Assembly (NCBI GenBank): GCA_963807655.1
Contig: CAWEDF010000031.1
Location: forward strand, 75,055 to 139,054
Direction: 5' to 3'
From: an uncultured Acidobacteriaceae bacterium
GTDB lineage: Bacteria; Acidobacteriota; Terriglobia; Terriglobales; Acidobacteriaceae
DNA length: 64,000 nucleotides
The notes below the pieces were generated by a model that was not told the origin of the DNA, searched no databases, and worked only from the letters and a program-made list of their open reading frames with translations. Below are positions 35,934 to 51,850 of the stretch, in pieces. The translations under genes were made by a program, and so were the position numbers. How positions within the stretch are numbered: the stretch's first letter is position 1; each line of letters begins with the position of its first letter.

Positions 35934-38590
35934 TCAGGGAAAATCAACATCCAGCGCGTAGATGTCTTGCGTACTCATGTCACGAACGTAAAGCCGGGAG
36001 TCGTCGGGGGCCTGGCCGCTCCACGATCCCCAGAATCCGAGATAGCGGCGCAGACCCGCCAAACCGAAGAGGTCCTCGGGACGGTTATCCCCAACCTTAA
36101 TGCGGTGGCACTTGGGATTCTCCACACCGAAGTTGTCGAAGTAGACGTAGCGGCTGTCCGATGACCAATACGGATAGTTCACGCTGGCTTCCGTGTGCCA
36201 CTCCGACCACTTCTGCGTGCGGAAATCATATAGCATGAGCTTATGCGAGCCCTCGACACTGACGGCGGCCAGGTAACGGCCGTCGGGAGACCAGCGCGGG
36301 GAAAACAGGCCTTTGGAACCGGGAAAGGTGGAAGTCTGGCGGGTCTTCATATCCACCAGCTGAATGTCCTTGGTTACGGTGTTCATGGCGGAAAGCCGTC
36401 CGAAAGCAAGCTGGGTGCCATCCGGAGACCATGTAGCGTCTATTTCCCCGACGTTTTCCGGCAATAGCTCCTGAGGGGAGCCGCCTTGCGCGGAAACCAG
36501 AAAGATCTTATATGGCTTTCCGGGTTGGCCGGAGATATAAGCGATTTGGCTTCCGTCGGGCGACCAGACTGGAAGCGAAGCTATCGAAGGCGGATAGCTA
36601 AGCTGCAGCCGTTCGCTGCCGTCCACACGGCTGCGCCACAGCGTTCCGTCGGGAATCGTGGCGTACGCGGCCCACTTGCCGTCGCGCAAGAAGGCGACAT
36701 CGGTCGCCGAAATTCCCCCCAGGAACGGAACAAATTGTTTCGCTGCAGGGTCGTAGCGTACGAGTTCCCCGCGCTGCTGCGTACCCTGCACAAATAGCTT
36801 GCGGCCATTGATATCCGGCAGAGCCGTAAAGTACAGGAGCGGGCCAGTCGTCAGTCGGGTGGGCGTCGCGGAAGCTTTGCGGAAAATGCTGGCGGAGTCC
36901 GCGAGAGCAAAGATGTCACCGGTTGACGGGCCGGCTTGACGGTGCCGCTTTCGAAGAGGTAGTGCCGCCCGTCCGCGGTCCAGCGGCCACAGCATTCCGT
37001 CGGTGGGGTGTGCCATCCTTTTAGCAGTTGATGCAGATTGGATCCGTCGGCGCGAACTTCCCACAATGAGTTGATGTTCGCCTGGTCCAGAACCGAAAAC
37101 CGAATGCGGCTTCCGTCGGGAGAAAAACTGGCAGCATAGGCGTAACCTGGCGCCGACACCAGAAGGTGCGCGGCACTCCCATCGGCGTTCGCCAGGTACA
37201 GATCGGATCCCTCGATAAACAGGAGCTGCCGCCCATCGGGCGACCATGTGCCTTCGCGGGCCGCGATGTCACCTAGCCGGCGAGGCGAACCCGTGGGCAA
37301 GGGCAAAAGCCAGAGGGGTACTACTCTGCTGCCCGTGCCCACGTTTGTACTGACTAGCAGTTGGGAATGGTCAGGCGAGATGTCATGGATCGTCATGCTC
37401 TTGATCGGCGCCGGAATTGCGGAACTCTCGCCGCCAGTCGTGGAAACCTGAGCCAAAACCAGACCCTCGGGACGGACTTGGGTGACATAGATACGCGTGC
37501 CATCCGTCAGCATGTTTCCAAACATGGGGAAACCGTCATGCGTGATCTGGGTGATTCCCGTGACCTTGGGCGGGCTTGGTGGAAGGAAAAACCAGATCAG
37601 GGCCGCTACTACTAACAGCACTGCCGTCGCAACCGCCCCCCAGATCCAGCGACGTTTATTTCCTGGAGACGGGGTGGCGGGCGCAACCGCGACGCTCACT
37701 CTGTCCGACGTGCTATCCCGCTTCAGCCGCTTCAAGTCGGCGCGGATTTCTGCAGCACTCTGATAACGGATCTCGCGGTCCTTCTCCAGAGCCTTGTCGA
37801 TGATATGTTCAAGCCCCGGCGGAAGATCGGGGTTGAGGCGCAGCGGTGGCGCGGGTTCCTTGTGGAGGATGGAATCGAAAACCGCGGCCGTGGTATCTCC
37901 GCGAAAGGGCAGGGTTCCGGTCGCCATCTCGTACAACACGGTGCCGAAAGAAAACACATCAGTGCGGGCGTCAAGCTCCTTGCCGAGCGTCTGCTCCGGT
38001 GACATGTAAGCCACAGTCCCCAGAGTGCTGCCGGCACTGGTTAGGTGCGGATTGTCGGCACTAGCGATGGTAGCCCCGTCCGGAGTGGCACTCGCTCGTG
38101 TTTTCGCCAATCCAAAATCGAGAATCTTGGCGTGTCCGCGCTCGGTCACGAACAGGTTCGCGGGCTTGATGTCACGGTGAACGATTCCCTTGGCATGGGC
38201 CGCATCGAGAGCATCGGCAATTTCGATCGCAATATCCAGCAAGCGGTCCAACTCAAGGCGCGGGCCCACAATCAGATCCCGGAGAGTCTTGCCTTCCAGA
38301 TACTCCATCACCAGAAAGAGGCGGCTCTCGTGCTCGCCAATTTCGTAAATCGTGCAGATGTTCGGATGATTCAGAGCCGAAGAAGCGCGAGCCTCACGCC
38401 GAAATCGCTCCAGCGCCTCCTCATCGTTCGCCAGGGCATCCGGGAGAAACTTGAGCGCGACAAAACGGTTGAGCTGGATGTCCTCGGCCTTGTAGACCAC
38501 ACCCATCCCGCCACCGCCGATTTTGCTCAGAACACGATAGTGGGAAACCGTCTGGCCAAGAATGGAAGGGGAATCAGGCACGCCGCACAT
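35934..38590 (-). pseudogene. Ser/Thr protein kinase with TM segment and TolB-like beta-propeller tail; frame change near 36920-36950
   Basis: ORF 36851..38590 has [19 protein letters not shown] and DFGLAK, then WSPDG repeats. ORF 35934..37247 continues the WSPDG/TolB-like repeats in another frame. Confidence 0.85.
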
Positions 38591-41280: not shown

Positions 41281-41764
41281 GGGCTCCGTTGTTTTTACTG
41301 CCGCTGTGGTTACGGTCAGCGATTCCTGCTCTCGGGGGGAACGAGAGGATCTCTCGGGGCCGGCAGTTGTCGAGGTACTGAAGAGGTCCGGGTTTCACGT
41401 CGTCCATACGCAGATCGTGCAGGACGACTCCATGCAGATTCAGAATGCGCTCGTTCATCTGGCTCTCGAAGTGCGCTTCATCGTCACCACGGGTGGGACG
41501 GGGATTGCGCCGCGCGATGTTACTCCGGAGGCGACTGCGGCGATTTGCGATCGTCTGATTGACGGCGTGGGTGAGCGCATGCGGCTTGAAGGCGCTAAGA
41601 AAACTTCGTTTGCAGCCTTGAGCCGGGGAGTTTGCGGGGTGCGGGAGAAAACTCTGATTCTGAATCTGCCGGGTAGTCCCGGCGGGGCGGTGGAATCTTT
41701 GGAGGCTGTGCTGGGGTTGATTCCTCATGCGTTGAATTTGCTGGAGGGGAAGACGGAGCACTAG
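41261..41764 (+). CDS. mogA: Molybdenum cofactor biosynthesis protein MogA/MoaB family
   Basis: The ATG at 41261 overlaps the end of the response-regulator gene. Contains VTVSDSCSRGEREDLSGP and TTGGTGIAPRDVTPEAT. Confidence 0.85.
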   Translation: MSSSTTEGSVVFTAAVVTVSDSCSRGEREDLSGPAVVEVLKRSGFHVVHTQIVQDDSMQIQNALVHLALEVRFIVTTGGTGIAPRDVTPEATAAICDRLIDGVGERMRLEGAKKTSFAALSRGVCGVREKTLILNLPGSPGGAVESLEAVLGLIPHALNLLEGKTEH

Positions 41765-41791
41765 CGACAGGGGACGACTTCGAAGTCGAAT

Positions 41792-41824
41792 CCCCACTTC
41801 TCGCAAAGAACGCGAGAAATGGGG
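41792..41824. repeat. REP-like hairpin ccccacttctcgc-aaagaac-gcgagaaatgggg
   Basis: Same architecture as the cccacctttgc-aaaaaac-gcaaaggtggg units inserted in selB. Confidence 0.75.
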
Positions 41825-41896
41825 CTCCCGGCACTTGAGATTATAAATCTGTTGCGGGGCGGGCGGAGTCGGGCTGGGCGGCCGGGTTCTGGCGTT

Positions 41897-41941
41897 ATGT
41901 TCCGACTGGAACATAGTGCGCGAATGTTCCAACTGGAACAT
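41897..41941. promoter_or_regulatory. Two 18-bp palindromes, ATGTTCC-N4-GGAACAT (41897-41914 and 41924-41941); parS-like protein-binding-site candidates
   Basis: Sequences are atgttccgactggaacat and atgttccaactggaacat, centres 27 bp apart. A further GGAACAC half-site lies at 41957-41963. Confidence 0.5.
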
Positions 41942-42257
41942 AACTCACATTTTACCGGAACACTGTGGAAATCTCGGAAAACCACCTTAAAGCTATAGTT
42001 GGGGGGCGGCAAGTGGCTGGGAGGGTGGGGTTTAGGGAAAGGGTCGCAAAACGCGGCTAAAAGGACACAGGGCGAAGGAAAAGCGGGCAACATCGCCCTT
42101 GGTGCTGGCAATCGGCGGGGGTGAGTGCCAATTACATGGACTTGCGGGGTGTAGGGACGTCCCGTCTGTCCGTCCCCGGACTCGGATTTTCGAAAACTCC
42201 GACGGCCAGACACTTGACGCGACGAGTGCCAGTTTGGGACCGGTTGCCGGAGCTGCT

Positions 42258-43352
42258 TTAGCTCATTACGAAGTGGCAGTCGACCTCTAACAGGCACCCG
42301 AGGGACCCCGGGCTGAAGGATCGGGTCTGGCGGTTCCTTATTTCGCTGGTTCTCGAAGAAACTAGTTGCACCTTCCTGCCAGATTTAGCGGACATATCGC
42401 GCAGGCATTTGCGAATCTCCTCTGGGGATTGTCGTCGGCTTCCGATTCGCAGGACGAGGTGCGCGTTCTTTTCAAGAACTGCGCCAAGGGAGCGCCACAT
42501 ATCCCCTATGAAAGACCAGTATTTCTCCTCTCGGGTATGCCTGTCGTCGCCGCCGAGCCGGCTTCTGGTCGGAAAAGGGGGACCTCCCAAGAACCACAAG
42601 CGCAGCCACTGATCCTCCTCGAAGTTTGTCACGTCCAAGTAAGGCGGGGATGTTACGACACACCGTACCGCCAGCTCGCGCATATCCATGAGGTAGGGCA
42701 GCTTCCTCATATCAGAGTGGAATACGAGAGAGTGAGCGTTTGGTAGCGGGCTAATGTATCGATAGTCAGTCCTGTTACGGACGACGTCAAAGACGTCGCG
42801 GTTTGGCGGGTGCCAGTTACGGTTCCTCCAGAAGCGGACCGAGTAATCGGGTTTGGTGCTGATTGTTCTGGGCATCTGATTGGACAAGTAAGCTGGACTT
42901 GTTCGCGACTCGCCATGCAGAGAACCCAGGACCAAGGCGGCGATCATTGCGTCGATCTTCGACGTGCGCCAGCGTAGACGTTCGCGGAGAAAAACCAGTT
43001 GGGATAAGGTTTTCGTTGAGAACGCCCACTTGAAAAATAGAGGAAGACTCTTCCAGGTAGCGTTGACATCAGTCTCCCGGCATTCGTCCTCGAGTTGCCG
43101 AAGTCGACGCTGTAACGTCTTGTATTGTGGAGGGTTCGTTTTTGCGAGCGTGAGGCAGTAGGCTACGTCGTTTGTATCGGAGGAAATTGCCTGCCTGTTC
43201 AAGAGCACCGCGGACAGCGCTGTCGTGCCCCGGCCGCTGAACGGATCCAGGACATACTCACCTGGAAGCGTGAGTCGTTCGATCCACTTTTCAGCGAACT
43301 GTTCGGGAAACATAGCGAAATAAGGACAGAGCGAGTGGAACCTGTTTCTCAT
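42258..43352 (-). CDS. DNA methyltransferase (N6-adenine or N4-cytosine; AdoMet motif precedes the SPPY motif)
   Basis: From the ATG at 43352, which forms an ATGA overlap with the upstream stop: FPEQFAEKWIERLTLPGEYVLDPFSGRGTT, then about 190 aa later VVTSPPYLDV. Confidence 0.8.
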   Translation of the reverse strand: MRNRFHSLCPYFAMFPEQFAEKWIERLTLPGEYVLDPFSGRGTTALSAVLLNRQAISSDTNDVAYCLTLAKTNPPQYKTLQRRLRQLEDECRETDVNATWKSLPLFFKWAFSTKTLSQLVFLRERLRWRTSKIDAMIAALVLGSLHGESRTSPAYLSNQMPRTISTKPDYSVRFWRNRNWHPPNRDVFDVVRNRTDYRYISPLPNAHSLVFHSDMRKLPYLMDMRELAVRCVVTSPPYLDVTNFEEDQWLRLWFLGGPPFPTRSRLGGDDRHTREEKYWSFIGDMWRSLGAVLEKNAHLVLRIGSRRQSPEEIRKCLRDMSAKSGRKVQLVSSRTSEIRNRQTRSFSPGSLGCLLEVDCHFVMS

Positions 43353-44316
43353 TTTTTGGGGGTACGTTTTCGCTGTCGTTGAATTGCTGCGCGGACCCAA
43401 GCCCTGCACTGCGAAAGTACTTCGGGTCGAATCGCATTCCCGTATTGGGTGATTCTGCACCTATCGAACAAAATTCCCGCTCGGTCGGTATGGGAAGACC
43501 ACTGGCTTCTCTCTACCCTCGACGGGATCATGTAAAGCTTGACGGGTTCGACCATGAACGGCTGCCGCATATATTCTCTCGAAAATTTCGCGGGCTGGAG
43601 CCTGTCAAGATGTTCCTTCCAATTCACTCCGGTCTTGCATTGAGCGAAACCGATTAGGTTGCCAGGTCTACCATCATTGAACTTTCTCCAACTCACCAGG
43701 TCTAACTTGCCGTCGCCACCGCCTGGTGGTTTGGCGTCCTTTTTCCATCCCGCTCCTTCGCCCACATGCTCGCACAGTTTTTCTATGTTCTCCCTAAATG
43801 CGTGCGCGGTACTTTTCTTTTTGCAGCGGTGCCGAAAACAAAACTACCCGAGTGCGGGCCACTTGCGGCCCAGAAGCTAGCGAGAACATCACCACAGAGC
43901 ATCTCGAAAACCTTGGTCGGATCAATCGATTCCAGCACTCTTGCCTTCGATTCCATACTCATTCGTGATATGAGTAAAAGGAACCAGTAAAGACAGGCAA
44001 CGTTGGAGGTTGAGCGAAACGGATATCTGATTTCTAACGCGGTCTTGGTCTGATTAAGAACGAAGGGGTACGAGTTGGTTGCGTTTTGACGTTGGCCGCA
44101 GACGGCAATCCTATCTTCCAATTCTAGGAATGCATCTGACGCCATTGTCTCGGCCCTTTCGTCGGCAATCTTGCTTGCTCTCGTGAGTTCCCGCTTCAGA
44201 TCCTCTCGCGAGATTTTACCGTCGGCCTTGAAGAGGCAGTTTATCTCAACCCAATCGGCGGCGTTCACGCGGAAATCGTCGGTGCTTGGGTGTGGGGATA
44301 AAAGGGGGCTACTCAT
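43349..44316 (-). pseudogene. Putative restriction-type nuclease (unknown N-domain plus Mrr-like PD-(D/E)xK C-domain), split at an A5 tract
   Basis: ORF 43783..44316 and ORF 43349..43765 join into about 322 aa if A5 (43818-43822) is read as A6: ...FGTAAKKKSTAHAFRENIEKLCEHVGEGAGW...GGGDGKLDLVSWRKF...LIGFAQCKTG. Confidence 0.55.
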
Positions 44317-45562
44317 TGTTTCCGGCCGCCGCTGTCGCTCGGTCGTTGCGCTTGCGCTTCAGTCTCATCGCATCCACGAGTTCACCAGCTAATTGCTCTA
44401 TCGTTAGCGCGACCTTGAGGGCATCGGAATCATCGCTAGAATAACCAGTCGGAAGAGTGCCATATGCCCTTTGGAGAGCGGCTTTCGCTTGTTGAAGCGA
44501 TTGAACGAATATCTTCTCGTCGCCGAGGCTGATATCGAGCGCAACATACAGGGGTAACCCGTCCCTTAGGGCCCTGATCCCATCTTCGGACTGGAGCACT
44601 CTGTCGAGATTCTTCAGGTCTGGGTTCTGGGACTTGATTAAGGACGGCTTGCCCGCTCGCTCGCCGTAAAGCCACGTCATTAGCTGGCCGAGGTTTGAAA
44701 CCCTTCTTGTGGGCACGGGGTTTTTTAGCGTTGCACCCTTTTGCTCAAGACCTAGGAACGATCGAATCCCCGGATAATCCATGCCCGTGTAGATGTAGTT
44801 AAAGTGGAACTTTGACTTCGCAATATTCGCCCGAGAGAACACCTTGGATCTTTCGGCCTCCTCCACGATCATCAGGCCGCGGTACATCCTTTGGACGAGC
44901 GAAGTGTAATCGCCAAGTTGTGCCGCTATCTGGTCCAGTGGTACGCCGTATTCATTGTGGACATGAGCGACATACTGCGCCTTTGCATAAGAGCCCCAAG
45001 GCGCCGGGCCATTCACGTGCTTGAACCCAAGGTAGCGCCAAGCTTCCTTTCTTGTCGTCACTATAACTGGCAAGGTTCGCAGCTCTTTTGCCGCCTCAGC
45101 CGAGATCCTCGGCAGGTCGGTTGCCCGTAGTCTCTCCCTGAGCGTTCCGTCAAGTAGCAGCTTGACTGCTGCCAAACGGCGGTTGCCCTCGATAACTGTG
45201 AACTTGCCGTCTTTACCCCTCTCTACGAACAGTGGCTCATGTTCAAAATACCCATTGTGCGCAATTGAGGCAGCGACCTCTTCGACAGCCATCTCCTTCC
45301 AGAGCTGCTTTAGCAAATCGGACTGACTGGTTTCCGGGCTGAGCCCGAACTCGGCGAGCCGCGGGTTCGAGCTGTCAAAACGCAGATCCTCGATCTTGGC
45401 TCGTTCGTAGACTCCTGTCGGAGGGGAGGCTGCAGGGCGGTCTTGTTGTCGAGCGTAGGCATTTTGCGTAAGCGTACTCAATTCTGCAGCTGGTTGCAAC
45501 GAATTCGGTAGCCGATGGAAGGGTGCGAGGTCTGGTGCCGTCCCTGCGGGACTCGGTCCCAT
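44309..45562 (-). CDS. ParB/Srx N-terminal-domain protein with HTH-like middle domain
   Basis: 417 aa. PLFVERGKDGKFTVIEGNRRLAAVKLL resembles ParB box II (GERRxRAA). GVPLDQIAAQLGDYTSLVQRMYRGL looks like an HTH. An 8-nt overlap joins it to the next gene. Confidence 0.65.
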   Translation of the reverse strand: MGPSPAGTAPDLAPFHRLPNSLQPAAELSTLTQNAYARQQDRPAASPPTGVYERAKIEDLRFDSSNPRLAEFGLSPETSQSDLLKQLWKEMAVEEVAASIAHNGYFEHEPLFVERGKDGKFTVIEGNRRLAAVKLLLDGTLRERLRATDLPRISAEAAKELRTLPVIVTTRKEAWRYLGFKHVNGPAPWGSYAKAQYVAHVHNEYGVPLDQIAAQLGDYTSLVQRMYRGLMIVEEAERSKVFSRANIAKSKFHFNYIYTGMDYPGIRSFLGLEQKGATLKNPVPTRRVSNLGQLMTWLYGERAGKPSLIKSQNPDLKNLDRVLQSEDGIRALRDGLPLYVALDISLGDEKIFVQSLQQAKAALQRAYGTLPTGYSSDDSDALKVALTIEQLAGELVDAMRLKRKRNDRATAAAGNNE

Positions 45563-45587
45563 TTCTTGCGGCTGGCCTAGAGCTTAC

Positions 45588-45761
45588 GTCCTTTCGGCAA
45601 GCTCAGGGCAGGCTCTGGTCTATTGTCTGCCGCCCCTCCGGGGCTGGAGTTGGGTGGTTTCGGGCCGCATCTTTCCCTGGGATTCGGCTTTACGCGGCAA
45701 ATACAAAAAAGCAGGTCCCTCCACTCCGCTCGCTTTCGCTCCGCGTCGGTCGGGATGACAG
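45588..45761. repeat. Cluster of REP-like units, including a 21-mer shared with the selB insertion and a gtcgggatgaca-type unit
   Basis: ttcggcaagctcagggcaggc at 45593-45613 is identical to 11570-11590. ctccgctcgctttcgctccgcgtcggtcgggatgaca lies at 45725-45761. Confidence 0.75.
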
Positions 45762-45802
45762 AGTTTTGTGTGGGATTGGCTCAAGACACGCGGGAGCTTG
45801 AA

Positions 45803-46117
45803 TCAGGCCTGGAATTCGCCGGCTTCGGGGAAGCGGAGTTTGCACTTGGCCAGGTTGAGGGCCAGGAGTTCTTCGATCTTGGTTTCTTCGCAGTTGCGGG
45901 ACATGGCTAGTTCGCTTACCAGCAAGTAGCGGGCGCGTTCGAGCATCTTCTTTTCGCGGAAGGACAGGGGCCATGCGCACCGGCTCCCTGTTTGAGGTCG
46001 CCAGTGTCCTTAAGAGCCTGATCGCCCTCCACCAGTGCAAAAAATTCTCGACTTCCTCTCCATCGCCGAAAACCTCACCACCGCCGACTGGAAAGACCGC
46101 TTCAAAGAAAACTCCGA
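45803..46117 (-). pseudogene. Scrambled remnant of carD: a direct copy of the 3' ~170 nt, then two internal blocks each in inverted orientation
   Basis: 45803-45972 aligns to 47654-47823 with about 7 mismatches. 45971-46036 matches the reverse complement of 47824-47892. 46037-46117 matches the reverse complement of 47893-47972. Confidence 0.85.
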
Positions 46118-46220
46118 CTCCCGTCTGTCCACGGATTCCAGGATTTGCCGCCACTCGTACGTATTTGCAAAACAACCCATTTGCCAGCAGTGAGCATCCG
46201 TTTACGCGTTTGGAGCCTAA

Positions 46221-46760
46221 ATGAGTAAGAACAATGGAATGGCCAATCCGTTCCGCCTCAAGCCTTTCGATTCCTCAGACAAGCGACTCCTTCGGGTGGT
46301 TATTGAAACTCCGAAGGGTAGCCGAAACAAGTTTGCTTTCAATCCCGATGACCAGATTTTCGAACTGAAGAAGGTGCTGCCCGCCGGCATGGCATTCCCT
46401 TATGACTTTGGATTCGTCCCGTCAACGAAAGCCGATGATGGCGATCCCGTAGATGTGCTGGTGCTGATGGACGAACCTGCATTCCCCGGATGTCTGCTCA
46501 CATGCAGACCCATCGGTGTTATCCAAGGGGACCAAGGCGACAACAAACGAAGAGTACGAAATGACCGAATTGTTGCAGTTGAAAAGGATGCGCACAGTTG
46601 GGCCGACATCAAAACTGTCAACGATCTCGGAAAGCAATTCGTTCGGGAACTGGAAGAATTCTTTGTGGACTACCACAAGCTATCGGGCGAACAGTATCGT
46701 GTGCTGGGGGTGAAGGGGCGGGATCCAGCCAGAAAGCTCGTGAAATCAGGAATGCGATGA
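46221..46760 (+). CDS. ppa: Inorganic pyrophosphatase (family I)
   Basis: 179 aa with VIETPKGSRNKFAF, FPYDFGFVPSTKADDGDPVDVLVL. Confidence 0.92.
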   Translation: MSKNNGMANPFRLKPFDSSDKRLLRVVIETPKGSRNKFAFNPDDQIFELKKVLPAGMAFPYDFGFVPSTKADDGDPVDVLVLMDEPAFPGCLLTCRPIGVIQGDQGDNKRRVRNDRIVAVEKDAHSWADIKTVNDLGKQFVRELEEFFVDYHKLSGEQYRVLGVKGRDPARKLVKSGMR

Positions 46761-46764
46761 ACAA

Positions 46765-47118
46765 GTGGGTGGTATGACGCAGATTCTAATTCGATTTCTT
46801 ATCGGCGGACTGGTTGTTTCTGCCTTCGCGGTCGTAGGCGATCTCTTAAAACCGAAGAGTTTCGCCGGGCTGTTTGGGGCAGCGCCTTCTGTCGCGCTTG
46901 CCACTTTGGGGCTGACTGTCGCAACCGAGGGTGCGGCTTACGCTGCAACTGAGGCTCGCTCGATGATGGCAGGGGCAATCGCTTTCTTCGCTTATGCTTC
47001 GTTCGTGAGCTGGGTATTAATGCGTTACAAACCAAAGGCCCTCTGGGTCACGATTTGTTCGATTCCTGTCTGGATCGGGGTAGCGTTCGGGATATGGGAA
47101 GTAGGGCTGAAGCAGTGA
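46765..47118 (+). CDS. DUF3147-family small membrane protein
   Basis: 117 aa, four hydrophobic segments, IRFLIGGLVVSAFAVVGD. Confidence 0.65.
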   Translation: MGGMTQILIRFLIGGLVVSAFAVVGDLLKPKSFAGLFGAAPSVALATLGLTVATEGAAYAATEARSMMAGAIAFFAYASFVSWVLMRYKPKALWVTICSIPVWIGVAFGIWEVGLKQ

Positions 47119-47544
47119 ATGGCAATGAGAATCCAAATTGATGTCTCCGCTTTCAGGAAAACAAAGTGGTACGAATATGCCGTCCGATTCGTCTTCGGAG
47201 GACTAATCACTGCTGTCGCGGGAATTATCGCCAAGAAGTTCGGCGCTGGCATTGGCGGCTTGTTCTTGGCCTTTCCGGCAATCCTCCCCGCAAGCGCAAC
47301 CCTAATAGAAAAACATGAAACGGAGAAGAAACAATCATATGGGCTCGAAGGAACGAAACGCGGAAGAAGTGCAGCCAGTGTTGATGCGGCCGGGTCGTCG
47401 ATTGGCAGCTTGGGATTACTGGTTTTTGCGGTGCTCGTTTGGCAGTTCATAGCCAGACACGGTACTGGGGTAGTCCTAGCCGGCGCTACGCTGGCATGGC
47501 TGACGGTTTCAGTGCTGGTCTGGCATGTTCGCAAACGAGCCTAA
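47119..47544 (+). CDS. DUF3147-family small membrane protein (second copy)
   Basis: 141 aa with VRFVFGGLITAVAG...GGLFLAFPAILPAS. It abuts the previous gene. Confidence 0.6.
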   Translation: MAMRIQIDVSAFRKTKWYEYAVRFVFGGLITAVAGIIAKKFGAGIGGLFLAFPAILPASATLIEKHETEKKQSYGLEGTKRGRSAASVDAAGSSIGSLGLLVFAVLVWQFIARHGTGVVLAGATLAWLTVSVLVWHVRKRA

Positions 47545-47652
47545 TCCAAAAAAGAACGGGCCGGCGCAATTAATGACTACTTCAGGGTCTTGACCTTCTT
47601 CGCACACAGCCATCCACTATTCTTGGAGGCTCCCCGCAAGCTGGTCGCCAGC

Positions 47653-48198
47653 TCAGGCCTGGAATTCGCTGGCTTCGGGGAAGCGGAGTTTGCACTTGGC
47701 GAGGTTGAGGGCCAGGAGTTCTTCGATCTTGGTTTCTTCGCAGTTGCGGGACATGGCTAGTTCGCTGACCAGGAGGTAGCGGGCGCGTTCCAGCATCTTT
47801 TTTTCGCGGAAGGACAGGGGCTTGGCCTGGTGGAGGGCGATCAGGCTCTTGAGGACACTGGCGACCTCGAACAAGGAGCCGGTGCGCATGCGGTCGGAGT
47901 TTTCTTTGAAGCGGTCTTTCCAGTCGGCGGTGGTGAGGTTTTCGGCGATGGAGAGGAAGTCGAGAATCTTCTGCACCTCGCCGTTGCGGACTACCCGGCG
48001 AATGCCCACGCTGCCTACGTTGTTGCAGGGCACCATGACCTTGAGACTGCTGGCCTTGATGTTGAGGAGATAGAACTTTTCCACCGTGGCGCCGATGGAG
48101 CGGCTGCTGATTTGTTCGATTACGCCCACACCGTGGTTGGGATAGACGACCTTGTCGCCTATGTGGAAATTCAGATCTACACCATTCATAAAAAGCAC
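47653..48198 (-). CDS. carD: CarD/CdnL-family RNA-polymerase-binding transcription regulator
   Basis: FHIGDKVVYPNHGVGVIEQI...KFYLLNI (TRCF-RID-like N-domain). The start may be the ATG at 48189. Confidence 0.9.
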   Translation of the reverse strand: MLFMNGVDLNFHIGDKVVYPNHGVGVIEQISSRSIGATVEKFYLLNIKASSLKVMVPCNNVGSVGIRRVVRNGEVQKILDFLSIAENLTTADWKDRFKENSDRMRTGSLFEVASVLKSLIALHQAKPLSFREKKMLERARYLLVSELAMSRNCEETKIEELLALNLAKCKLRFPEASEFQA

Positions 48199-48419
48199 CT
48201 GGGCAGGCGAGGGACAGTGGGGGAAGAAGCGTTATCTTTACTGTAAGATACTATTCCGAAATGGGACTAAAAGCAAGGAAGGTCCCTGGTTCCAGCCGCC
48301 CCGGGGAAGCGATAACGGGAGCTCGCTAGCTTGTAAATTATTGTTGTCAGATCGTTTAGGCCTGCCGAAAGGCTGATTAGGCCGGGAACCCGGCGAGCCA
48401 CTTCGCTTATAATCGCGGT

Positions 48420-48872
48420 GTGAGCTTTGCGCAGAGCAAGCGAGACCGGCGGGCCGGGCGCGTTCTCGGGCTGGACGTGGGGTCGAGAAGGATTGGGGTC
48501 GCGGTGTCGGATCCTCTGGGGATTACCGCCCAAGGGTTGGAGACCCTACAGAGGCGGAACAAACGGCAGGACATGGCGGCGCTGGAGCGGGTGATTCTGG
48601 ATTACGCGGTGCGGGAGATCGTGGTCGGTCTGCCGCTGCGGATGAGTGGCGCGGGAGGGACGCAATCGGAAAAGATGCAGGAGTTCGCGGAGGAGTTGCG
48701 GAAGCGCTTCCGGCTGCCAGTGCATTTGTGGGATGAGCGGCTGACCTCGGCGGAAGCGAATCGGCTGTTGCGGGAGACGGAGTTGTCGATTGAGAAGCGG
48801 GCGAAGGCGGTGGATCGAATGGCGGCGGTGCTGATTTTGCAGGGGTGGATGGAAGGGCGTCGGCCCCGGTAG
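48420..48872 (+). CDS. ruvX: YqgF-family putative pre-16S rRNA nuclease / Holliday-junction-resolvase-like protein
   Basis: 150 aa with VLGLDVGSRRIGVAVSDP and WDERLTSAEA. Confidence 0.9.
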   Translation: MSFAQSKRDRRAGRVLGLDVGSRRIGVAVSDPLGITAQGLETLQRRNKRQDMAALERVILDYAVREIVVGLPLRMSGAGGTQSEKMQEFAEELRKRFRLPVHLWDERLTSAEANRLLRETELSIEKRAKAVDRMAAVLILQGWMEGRRPR

Positions 48873-48901
48873 AGGGGCTTCCGGAAAACGGGAGCCGCTC
48901 A

Positions 48902-51850
48902 CTATTTTAGCTTTTCGTACTCCGCCTTGGCTTGCTTCAGGATGGGGATGTCAGGGTCGGCGTCTTTCCAGAGGGCGAAGAAATCCTGGTAAGCAGCTTT
49001 GGCTCTGGCAGTGTCGCCGGTGAGCGTGTAGGCGCGCGCGAGTTGAAGATGGGCCAAAGCGCCGATGGGCTCGTTTGTCACGACGCCGGGATTGTCGATA
49101 ATTTTCTGGAACTCCGCCGCCGCTTCCGGCCCCTTGTGACCCATCAGATATGCCTGGCCCCGGATGTATGCTGGGTACACTTGCAAATAAATCGTCTGGG
49201 CTGGGGTGCCGAGTTCATACGCAGATGCAGCCTCAAGCAGTGCAATCGCCTTGGATGCGTCGCCCTTACTGAGCGCGATTTGGCCGTGAATCTCAGGCAG
49301 GTAATTGAACTGCACGATCGTGTCGAGCGGGAAGTGCTTTGCCAGATCGGCAGCAATTGTCTCTGCATGCCGGACATCGCCCGCAAATGCATAGGCGAGC
49401 GCCGCGGCAGCCTGTATGTCCCGATTGGTTGAGACCGCGAGTGCCGCCGCCGTCCCTTGCTTTGCTTCTGTAGAGTTGCCGAAGAGTGATTCTCGGAGCG
49501 CCGCATCGATTAGGTATCCGGCGGCTGTCTCTTTCTCGTCCGCACGTAACGCGGAGGAGGCAGCCCGTCGGGAAAGTTCACGCGCTTTCTTCAACTGTCC
49601 TGAATAGCCTGCCGTCAGGCCCTCAAGATAAAGTAGGACATCTTCGACTCCCGGCTTTCCGGTTGCCCACGCCGCTTCACGGTTCATGCTCGATTCATCG
49701 TGCTCCAGGAAGGCTACTTGGTAGAGGTTAAGGTGGTTCAAATAAGAATCCTGATGACGTGCCTGGGCCTCGGCGACGGTCGCTTTCGCTTGACTGAGTT
49801 GGTTCAAACTCAAGTAGGTTCCAACCACGGCGGCATAGCCAATGGCGCTCGGGTCCAGGCTGAATGCTCTTTGCGCCTCCGGCAGAGTCTTATCGTACTG
49901 ACCTATCTGACCGTACATGTAGCCCAAGTCTGTAGGGGGAACAGTGTCCAGAGGATAGGTTTCGGCCCAAAGCCGGTAAGTCTTGGCGGCTTTGTCCAAT
50001 TCCCCTGTAACAAAGTGATAATAGTGAGAAGTAATGTAAAACCTCTCTCGCTCACCCACCCGGTCGCGCAACTCGTAGGCCTTGACTTCGCTTTCGGCGC
50101 CCAAGGCGGCTTGGCCCAAATTGCCATAATCGAGGCCCAGTGCTGAATAGGCCATGGCGAACTTGGGGTCGAGGCTGATGGCGCGCTGGAACAAGGCAAT
50201 CGCGGCCGCCGGATCATACTTCTCGACGTGCGCCCTTTGCCCCAGCGTGTAAGCTTGCAGCGCTTCCAGCGAGGAAGTGGTTGCCTGCTCCAGTGGTGTG
50301 TCGAATTTCTGGACGGACGCCAGAGATTCGCCGAGTTTGCCGCGGAGCTCAGAGGCCGCTTTGGCCAGCGTCTCCAGAACGTGTTGTTTGTCACTGGCCG
50401 TCACCTGCTCTTGCGCCAGTGTTTCTCCGGTGCGGCAGTTGGAAGCCGTCAAGCCAAGAACGTATTGTGGAGCGAGGCTGGCAATCGTGCCATCAATCAC
50501 GGCTTTGGCGTTGACGCGCTGGCAGAGTTGCCGGGCGAGGTCTTTTGTGAGGCGCGTGCCGGCGGACTGCTCCATCTGCTTCAGCGTATCGGCGATGCGC
50601 TGGTCCGATACCAGATTCAAGAATGGCGACTGCTCAAGCTGGACTGCCAGCCCTTGCCGGAGCGTTCCATCAAAAACCGGATCGCCGGTGGTGTTGGCGA
50701 AGTCGGCTAACACAATGGTGTCCTTTTCCGTGAGTGGAGGCGCCCGGCGAGACCGCCAGAACAAGGTGCCCAGGATAACCGCCGCCAACAAGACGAGCGC
50801 CGGAATCAGAATCTTGCTCCGCGGACGGGGCGCCGCCAGAATTTGATCGGAGCGCGGCATCGTCTTTTTTTCCGGCGTTGCTGGAGCAGCCGGCATTTTG
50901 GATGGCTCTGGCGGCGCCGCGATCTTAGCCGCTATTTCGGTCCGACGTGATTCTGTATCTCTTTTCAGCCGCTGCAGGTCGGTGCGAATTTCCGCGGCGC
51001 TCTGGTAGCGCAGAGTGCGATCTTTCTCAACTGCTTTGTCGATGGCTCGTTCAAGATCAGCCGGCACTTCGGGGTTCAAGCGAACGGGCGCTACGGCAGC
51101 TTTGTGCAAAATGGCATCGAAGATCGCGCCGGCAGTTTCACCGGTGAAGGGGAGGTTCCCGGTTGCCATCTCGTACAGCACGACACCAAAAGAGAACAAA
51201 TCCGTGCGGGGATCGAGTTCTTTGCCTAATACCTGCTCCGGGGACATGTAGGCGACGGTGCCGATGGCCGTTCCGGGAGAAGTGAGATGTTGCTCGTCGA
51301 CGGATCCGGACTGGGTGCCAGCCGCTGCGATTTTGCTGGAGGAACTTGCTGCCAAGGTGATCTTGGCCAGGCCGAAATCGAGAATCTTGGCATAGCCGCG
51401 GTCGGTGACAAAAAGATTAGCCGGTTTGATGTCGCGATGCACAATACCTTTGGCGTGGGCTGCATCGAGTGCATCCGCAATCTGAATGGCCAGCGAGAGA
51501 ATCGTTTCAGTCTCCATCGGACGCGCGCCAATACGATGTTTCAGCGTCATCCCGTCCAGAAATTCCATGGCGATGAAGGCCTGACCATTCGCCTCGCCAA
51601 TATCGTGAATAGTGCAGATGTTGGGATGGTTGAGGGCGGAGGCAGCCCTGGCTTCCCGATGGAATCGTTCCAGGACCTGGCGATCATGGGCAACCTCCGG
51701 GGGGAGGAACTTGAGGGCCACAAAGCGGTCGAGCCGGGTGTCCTGCGCTTTGTAGACAACACCCATGCCGCCGCCGCCAAGCTTCTCGATAATGCGGTAA
51801 TGCGAGATGGTTGTGCCGATCAAAGGCCTTTGCCCGCCCCAAGGTCGCAA
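48902..51850 (-). CDS. Ser/Thr protein kinase with TM segment and long TPR-repeat C-terminal region
   Basis: 982 aa with [19 protein letters not shown] and DFGLAK, then many TPR-like AxxYxxLG repeats. Confidence 0.9.

Follow-up and report, generated by a model that had tools for sequence, protein, structure and literature searches.

A disrupted copy of a widespread three-gene module encoding a ParB-like protein, a putative nuclease, and an exchangeable DNA methyltransferase in an uncultured Acidobacteriaceae bacterium

A stretch of 64,000 nucleotides from the genome of an uncultured Acidobacteriaceae bacterium (contig CAWEDF010000031.1; hereafter the window, with positions counted from its first letter) carries on its minus strand an operon encoding a ParB-like protein (gene 1, 44309..45562), a putative nuclease (gene 2, 43349..44316), and a DNA methyltransferase (gene 3, 42258..43352). 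Comparison with other genomes identifies this operon as one copy, with its nuclease gene broken, of a widespread and uncharacterised three-gene module. The conserved core of the module is the gene 1/gene 2 pair, around which the methylase is interchangeable among the SPPY N6_N4, D12/Dam-like, and C5 families. We consider it moderately likely that the module as a whole acts as a three-component, restriction-modification-like defence system.

Gene neighbourhoods constitute the first piece of evidence. A scan with a gene 2 profile, limited to one genome per species, yielded 78 loci spanning Acidobacteriota, Planctomycetota, Chloroflexota, Bacteroidota, Verrucomicrobiota, Gemmatimonadota, Spirochaetota, and others; most of them are chromosomal and have unrelated flanks. 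In all 78 loci gene 1 immediately precedes gene 2, and 72 of them have an adjacent methylase, so that the co-occurrence on which an earlier reading of the window (made from its letters without database searches, and referred to here as the sequence-only reading) had staked its proposal is borne out. The junction of genes 1 and 2 is usually tight in the relatives, with a median gap of −1 nt and at most 30 nt between the two genes in 63 of 68 loci. Clustering of the flanking open reading frames (ORFs) in the 78 loci brought up only two further recurrent neighbours, both of them methylases. A SPPY N6_N4 methylase of the gene 3 type is found downstream in ~29 loci and upstream on the opposite strand in 2, and a D12/Dam-like DPPY methylase directly upstream of gene 1 in ~39. 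GATC was considered as a common target of the D12 enzymes and found not to be supportable, their best solved relative being an unnamed adenine methylase (7m6b) rather than Dam. A search starting from gene 1 homologues recovered the same trio in 4 of 4 cases, and one gene 1-derived locus is situated in a defence island with HsdR, PIN, HicB, and AAA_13 ATPase neighbours. Genes 1, 2, or 3 are split or truncated in six related loci, five of which (L001, L014, L044, L060, and L078) stem from metagenome-assembled genomes with 'MFD' isolate names and one (L005) does not; these splits may reflect decay of the system or assembly indel errors.

Within the window, the compact arrangement of three minus-strand genes with overlapping ends was confirmed from the ORFs and the letters at their junctions. 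Gene 1 comprises 417 amino acids as the longest ORF. Its stop codon (TAG, 44309-44311) falls within an 8-nt overlap (44309..44316, ATGAGTAG) with gene 2, whose ATG begins at 44316. Gene 2 is split into two ORFs of 177 amino acids (43783..44316) and 138 amino acids (43349..43765), and its TGA (43349-43351) overlaps the ATG of the 364-amino-acid gene 3 (43350-43352) in an ATGA at 43349..43352. The motifs quoted for the three products, namely TVIEGNRRLAAVKLL in gene 1, GDGKLDLV...FAQCKTG in gene 2, and DPFSGRGTT upstream of TSPPY in gene 3, were all found.

A restriction-modification-like system is proposed because a constant pair is combined with methylases from three unrelated families, because relatives occupy a phage defence hotspot, and because the module is mobile and under purifying selection. 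The exchange of one methylase family for another while the partner pair stays constant is typical of restriction-modification systems, and the restriction-modification reading of the trio given earlier is thus supported by the constancy of the pair together with the frequency of methylase adjacency. In the proposed mechanism, the gene 3 methyltransferase would mark host DNA, probably with N4-methylcytosine, and this methylation would protect it. The products of genes 1 and 2, whose amounts would be kept in a fixed ratio by the overlap of the genes, would jointly form the restriction arm, presumably as a complex. The gene 1 protein would bind DNA through its ParB-type helix-turn-helix (HTH), and the pocket of its N-domain would serve as a nucleotide-gated switch or clamp that holds the complex on unmarked DNA or lets it slide there. 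In a final step, the gene 1 protein would license the gene 2 product to cut the unmarked DNA. Taken alone, this clamp-and-license step is doubtful. Somewhat more doubtful is the specific idea that genes 1 and 2 represent a new class of restriction enzyme, in which a nucleotide-gated ParB clamp slides on unmethylated DNA and delivers or activates the nuclease. If this were true, one-dimensional diffusion of a switch of the cytidine triphosphate (CTP) type would replace the translocation or sliding driven by adenosine triphosphate (ATP) in type I and type III enzymes.

The description of gene 1 as ParB-like holds at the level of the predicted fold, the closest matches being CTP-type ParB, Noc, and KorB proteins over the N-domain and the HTH. 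At the sequence level, the Pfam ParB_N match is weak (expectation value, E, 0.011); the family profile matches Helicobacter pylori Spo0J in a PDB profile search (E 5e-4), and PHROG 3694, of unknown function, matches over the full length (3e-66). The AF2 (AlphaFold2) model of gene 1 has a mean predicted local distance difference test (pLDDT) score of 86.6. In a Foldseek search of the PDB, its top 27 matches are all CTP-type ParB, Noc, or KorB structures, with E from 4.6e-6 to 9e-4 and alignments of ~250 columns covering the N-domain and the HTH; the probability is 1.0 for the ParB proteins of M. xanthus, C. crescentus, B. subtilis, and T. thermophilus. The order of domains is an N-terminal ParB domain, an HTH at residues ~190-238, and a helical C-terminal domain at 240-417. 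Because the relatives are only ~384 amino acids long, the first 30-45 residues of gene 1 are doubtful, and its true start may lie downstream of 45562. Gene 1 belongs to a family of at least 3,972 clusters at 90% identity, distributed over many phyla and phages.

Residues invariant in the family are D63xxNPR68, EGNRR125-129, GFKHVNG179-185, W189, QxGD215-218, and SQNP311-314. The canonical ParB motifs QPR, GERR, and ENLQR are not found in gene 1, which has NPR, GNRR, and GFKHVNG instead. According to PDB titles and alignment, the hydrolysis mutants Q52A and E93A of M. xanthus ParB fall in QPR and GERR; gene 1 has an invariant Asn127 at the GERR position and, by motif register, Asn66 at the QPR position. 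The arginines Arg68, Arg128, and Arg129 in box I (NPR) and box II (GNRR) are retained. Nucleotide binding by gene 1 therefore appears plausible, whereas ParB-like CTP hydrolysis is doubtful in view of the asparagine replacements. If the clamp reading is correct, these substitutions at the hydrolysis site would result in a long-lived clamp. The C-terminal ~180 residues are all-helical and conserved, and Foldseek found no PDB structural match to them. A catalytic HEPN domain was considered for this region and rejected, since among 47 sequences no invariant or near-invariant Arg or His occurs in residues 240-417, and hence no Rx4-6H motif. Identity in the box III/HTH segment is equal within and between methylase types, which argues against gene 1 reading a variable target sequence. 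If such a target is read at all, gene 2 is the better candidate, because its N-domain is the most variable segment (28-35% pairwise identity). Per-domain identities within and between methylase types were also compared for signs of a specificity subunit; the differences are small and confounded with taxonomy.

The strong conservation of the gene 1 HTH, whatever the type of methylase, would also suit an arrangement in which genes 2 and 3 form an ordinary type II restriction-modification system and gene 1 is a mere transcriptional controller, a large, KorB-like analogue of a C protein that delays expression of the nuclease after transfer. KorB, a CTP-dependent repressor of the ParB family, is among the best structural matches of gene 1, and gene 1 is the first gene of the operon. 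However, a protein of 370-390 amino acids with a conserved C-terminal domain of 180 residues far exceeds the needs of a controller, and gene 1 is the most conserved of the three genes. Its coupling to gene 2 also persists in every one of the 78 loci, including those with an upstream methylase or one on the opposite strand, and in the PD-lambda-5 system, to which we return below, the same N-domain is fused to an effector domain and not to a regulator. We judge a controller role for gene 1 unlikely.

The gene 2 reading frame is restored by adding one A at ~43818-43823, in the run GCAAAAAGAAAAG, which gives a product of 322 amino acids. This repair from A5 to A6, suggested in the sequence-only reading, was right in that it reproduces the AAKKK of an intact relative, and the repaired protein aligns end to end with metagenome relatives of 320-330 amino acids (at most 80% identity among the representatives listed). 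The accompanying claim of an Mrr-like nuclease stands only in part: the motif is present and the predicted fold is compatible, if weakly so, while a significant match to Mrr_cat is lacking. No Pfam, NCBIfam, or PADLOC family was assigned to gene 2; a Pfam scan of 37 aligned relatives taken singly assigned none either, and sequence and profile searches of the PDB gave chance matches only. Gene 2 reaches no restriction-enzyme profile, its resemblance to Mrr being confined to the level of motif and architecture. PHROGs 14650 and 3984, both of unknown function, match the protein. The family is large: an exhaustive profile search retrieved 2,280 clusters (50% identity) at an E threshold of 1e-3, 409 of which also pass a threshold of 1e-30, and the best 150 matches listed are nearly all stand-alone proteins of ~300-350 amino acids, plus some shorter fragments.

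In the AF2 model of gene 2 (mean pLDDT 90.9), the N-terminal half is winged-helix-like and the C-terminal half follows the alpha-beta-beta-beta-alpha-beta order of PD-(D/E)xK nucleases. E138 is located on a helix, D202 and D206 (GDGxLD) precede the second strand, and Q226-C-K228 lies at the end of the third strand; D285-R-C-R288 is also present. This layout of residues and strands matches the pattern of the Mrr-type catalytic domain. The best, though weak, Foldseek matches in the PDB are to the nuclease-bearing proteins VC1899, Can2, Card1, and Cdn1, in the first three to the PD-(D/E)xK nuclease domain, and in a viral library 7 of the top 22 matches are annotated 'Restriction endonuclease' or 'Mrr domain' (E from 0.003). 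Among 130 diverse members, D202, D206, Q226, R69, Y110, R286, and R288 are invariant and E138 is kept in 96%. Gene 2 is thus probably a nuclease of Mrr-like layout, with weak to moderate support from motif and predicted structure.

The roles of the two proteins might also be reversed, with the ParB/Srx domain of gene 1 acting as the catalytic nucleoside triphosphatase (NTPase) or nuclease, a role suggested elsewhere for GmrS, Osa, and the ParB nucleases of plasmids, and gene 2 serving as the subunit that recognises DNA or senses its modification. ParB/Srx nucleases and NTPases are indeed known in conflict systems (reviews PMC10853773, PMC12839542), the N-domain of gene 2 is winged-helix-like, and some relatives, those of phages among them, lack the lysine of its Q-x-K motif. 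Gene 1, however, is closest in fold to the clamp-type ParB, Noc, and KorB proteins and not DUF262/GmrS, and the sole ParB/Srx defence protein in its Foldseek list is SspE, with an E of 0.87. Furthermore, D202, D206, and Q226 of gene 2 are invariant in the 130 members, as residues of an active site would be. A catalytic gene 1 is therefore considered improbable.

The identification of gene 3 as a DNA methyltransferase is confirmed by a Pfam N6_N4_Mtase match (9e-17); the PADLOC model MTase_II also matches it (2e-30, among the best 25 of 58 matches listed). Motif I (DPFSGRGTT, residues 36-44) is located ~220 residues before motif IV (TSPPY), and alignments to PDB entries show the segment order to be swapped with respect to beta-class enzymes. 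By these alignments, gene 3 is circularly permuted relative to the beta-class methyltransferases. Its best PDB sequence matches are TTHA0409 and N4-cytosine methyltransferases, SPPY is kept in 27 of 27 orthologues, and the enzyme is probably an N4-cytosine methyltransferase.

Relatives of the pair are also encoded by phages. A tblastn search of phage genomes with gene 1 retrieved the P2-like phages Wphi (gp98), vB_EcoM-12474, L-413C, HQ103, and Pseudomonas phage D14A, with 27-30% identity over 69-83% of the protein and E from 2e-21 to 3e-32. The next gene in these phages encodes a gene 2 homologue: Wphi gp96 shares 24% identity with gene 2 (E 7e-12), and hhalign gives a probability of 96% for the vB_EcoM-12474III protein. 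A C5-cytosine methylase adjoins the pair in Wphi, vB_EcoM-12474III, and D14A, the Wphi enzyme matching Pfam DNA_methylase with 1e-61. In Wphi and vB_EcoM-12474III, the trio is inserted between the portal gene Q and the replication gene A. This interval is hotspot 1 of P2 phages, the cargo of which consists of defence genes (PMC9519451). The orf98-orf96-mth cluster of Wphi resembles the window operon in its homologues of genes 1 and 2, its overlapping genes, and its adjacent methylase; it differs in that the methylase is of the C5-cytosine type and on the opposite strand, and in that the nuclease-like proteins of Wphi, 12474III, and D14A have QCG or QCA in place of QCK. No published function for the Wphi cluster was found in the literature. 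In Vibrio phage ValB1MD-2 (L091), a shorter ParB-like gene and a hypothetical gene precede a DNA adenine methylase.

The module falls within none of the named systems tested, and no named system with a trio of ParB-like protein, nuclease, and methylase was found in the literature. The GmrSD pair, taken as the nearest analogy in the sequence-only reading, gives way to PD-lambda-5 as the closer one, because the N-domain of gene 1 matches PD-Lambda-5_A, and to the P2-phage trios. All 24 PD-Lambda-5_A models in PADLOC match gene 1 at residues ~53-216 (best E 4.4e-18), and so does the PADLOC candidate PDC-M38A (5e-17). PD-lambda-5 is a prophage-borne pair of a ParB/HEPN protein and a methyltransferase with experimentally validated defence activity; it protects broadly, its cloning required an mrr-deleted host, and it has been called a compacted 'RM+Abi' system (PMC9519451). 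Like the module described here, it combines a ParB-type N-domain with an adjacent methylase in a mobile or prophage setting. Unlike the module, it consists of two genes with the HEPN domain fused to the ParB domain, whereas a separate nuclease-like third gene is present in all 78 loci examined here. The PD-Lambda-5_A matches to gene 1 end at about profile position 175, although the models are 428-613 positions long. A HEPN domain like that of PD-lambda-5 was accordingly not found in gene 1, where conserved Arg or His residues are also missing from the C-terminal domain. In Olivibacter sp. CPCC 100613, a 507-amino-acid PD-Lambda-5_A-like protein (L071:2356-3879) is encoded directly upstream of a D12 methylase, gene 1, and gene 2, and two different ParB-type proteins thus flank one methylase.

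Other known systems share single features with the module. Type II restriction-modification systems place a methylase beside a gene for a PD-(D/E)xK-type nuclease, which is predicted here, in tight linkage and with an exchangeable methylase, but they do so without an obligate third component of the ParB type. Mrr shares with gene 2 the winged helix and the GDGxxD...QxK core layout; as a type IV enzyme, however, it acts alone on methylated DNA and has no cognate methylase. The clamp proteins ParB, Noc, and KorB correspond to gene 1 in the fold of the N-domain and HTH and in the arginines of boxes I and II. They differ in the residues for hydrolysis, which are not Asn, and in the C-terminal domain; the genomic partners of gene 1 are a putative nuclease and a methylase, and no ParA or known parS accompanies it here. 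GmrSD/BrxU, DndB, and SspE likewise employ a ParB/Srx domain in defence linked to DNA modification, sometimes as a split pair with a nuclease. These systems feature DGQQR or DGQHR motifs, HNH (DUF1524) nucleases, modified-DNA targets, and no cognate methylase, in contrast to gene 1, which has EGNRR and an HTH like canonical ParB. Membership in GmrSD or DndB was rejected on the basis of the EGNRR motif and of the absence of any DUF262 or DndB profile match in Pfam, NCBIfam, and PADLOC; by motif, by fold, and by the missing ParA, gene 1 falls outside DndB, DUF262/GmrS, and plasmid ParB accompanied by ParA.

Several observations weigh against the restriction-modification-like reading. Box III of gene 1 reads GFKHVNG as opposed to the ENLQR of ParB, and no other part of the protein is as conserved as its box III/HTH segment (61-67% pairwise identity). 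An adjacent methylase is missing from 6 of the 78 loci, 2 of which are cut by contig ends. As to the nuclease, the best Foldseek matches of gene 2 are weak in the PDB (E 0.03-0.3, probability 0.72 or lower) and in the viral library (best E 0.003), Mrr_cat is matched by 1 of the 37 relatives (E 0.11) and not by gene 2 of the window, and a minority of relatives, including phage ones, have A, T, or G at the position of K228 (QCA, QCT, QCG). Finally, the nuclease gene of the window copy is itself frameshifted.

The frameshift site (43816..43824, minus strand) lacks 1 nt relative to the intact allele carried by JGI contig L097 (GCGAAAAAGAAAAC), the run in the window being GC-AAAAAG-AAAA. The L097 allele, which encodes the 322-amino-acid protein P0508 and is ~94% identical to repaired gene 2, reads GCG AAA AAG AAA ACT where the window reads GC- AAA AAG AAA AGT, and the repaired translation is AAKKKS as compared with AAKKKT in P0508. 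By this alignment the lesion is a single-base deletion at ~43823. A pattern scan of the JGI collection gave no match to an intact gene 2 allele, which was found by cluster look-up instead. Between the window and L097, the ratio of nonsynonymous to synonymous substitution rates (dN/dS) is 0.038 for gene 1, 0.055 for gene 2 as a whole, and 0.115 for gene 3; within gene 2 it is 0.043 upstream of the lesion and 0.065 downstream. All three genes are thus under purifying selection, which is strong for the gene 1/gene 2 pair (dN/dS 0.04-0.06). Such low values indicate that gene 2 was constrained until very recently and that the frameshift is either recent or a sequencing error.

The identical split of gene 2 occurs in the ENA contig L079 (ERZ25039506 contig_39477) and in a Logan contig. 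L079 does not count as an independent lineage for the split, because it is free of substitutions relative to the window over 41343-47736. The only differences between the two within this block are four single-base indels, at 46799, 46781, 46246, and 42164; none of them lies in a long homopolymer, and at one of them the window lacks the C of a GATC that L079 contains. These indels look like assembly errors, which attests to indel noise in the assemblies and calls for caution with frameshifts in them. On balance, we find it quite likely that the deletion is a real and recent mutation, a systematic sequencing error being the less likely but still credible explanation. Because the deletion affects the nuclease gene, the local restriction arm may be inactive, with the methylase and the ParB-like protein remaining. 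Programmed −1 frameshifting within the run of A was considered and found unlikely, since the sequence A AAA AGA does not have the form of an X XXY YYZ heptamer and no shift is required in intact relatives.

The surroundings of the operon point to recent mobility. Its GC content of 54.2%, as compared with 58.4 ± 1.6% in 3.3-kb windows, places it in the lowest 1% of the window and corroborates the earlier impression of an operon more AT-rich than its flanks. The flanks are of a housekeeping nature, with molybdopterin genes on the left and pyrophosphatase, DUF3147, carD, and ruvX genes on the right. The block shared with L079 (41343..47736) contains the operon, a scrambled carD remnant, ppa, and two DUF3147 genes; the absence of substitutions extends over at least 6.4 kb, reaching the end of the L079 contig on the left. 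Immediately to the right (47737-50301; carD, ruvX, and a kinase gene), the window and L079 are ~14% diverged. A substitution-free block beside such divergence indicates recent exchange between related Acidobacteriota-like strains, and the block was probably exchanged by horizontal transfer or recombination with a breakpoint inside carD. Together, the low GC content and the identical block in common with a diverged strain are indicative of a mobile origin.

These signs of mobility are also what would be expected of a maintenance, partition, or addiction module, in which the ParB-like protein binds a mobile element and methylase and nuclease enforce its retention, and relatives are indeed carried by phages and by a plasmid. 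As noted in the sequence-only reading, however, ParA is not present: no Walker A motif of the form KGGxGK[ST] exists anywhere in the window, and no recurrent ParA-like cluster was found among the neighbours in the 78 loci, so that a partition module in particular was rejected. The predominance of chromosomal loci with unrelated flanks and the placement of phage copies in a hotspot with defence cargo also argue against element maintenance, and post-segregational killing is a normal property of restriction-modification systems anyway. A maintenance function is highly improbable.

A few further features were observed near the operon. A terminator-like hairpin followed by a T-run (42085..42098, minus strand) lies ~160 nt 3′ of gene 3 and is a match to the consensus only. 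Just upstream of gene 1, at 45803-46118, the 3′ end of the carD-like gene (47653..48198, minus strand) is partially repeated in scrambled form, the matching part of the gene being 47653-47976: a direct segment of 169 nt (96% identity) is followed by segments of 69 nt and 84 nt, each inverted in place (93% and 98%). This copy may be the remnant of a rearrangement or insertion, or a mis-assembly. The window contains no tRNA gene, and no integrase-like ORF is found among those listed for 38-50 kb. Farther out, the region lies between two paralogous genes for Ser/Thr protein kinases (36851..38590 and 48902..51850, both on the minus strand), whose N-terminal kinase domains are near-identical in places; one continues into a beta-propeller-like region, the other into a TPR-like region.

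What gives the module broader interest is that both the gene 1 and the gene 2 families are large and functionally unassigned, with members in numerous phyla and in phages. Neither gene 2 nor its relatives are represented by a model in PADLOC-DB 2.0.0, and a PADLOC-based tool would therefore probably miss the trio. Local interest is lower, the nuclease gene of the window copy being disrupted. Known CTP switches of the ParB family operate in chromosome segregation (ParB), in nucleoid occlusion (Noc), and in repression over long distances (KorB). If gene 1 acts as the partner of a nuclease in the discrimination of self from non-self, this would be a new job for such a switch. It would also help to explain PD-lambda-5, for which no description of a mechanism was found in the literature searched. 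Since versions of the Wphi and P2 type exist in phages of E. coli, the hypothesis is directly testable.

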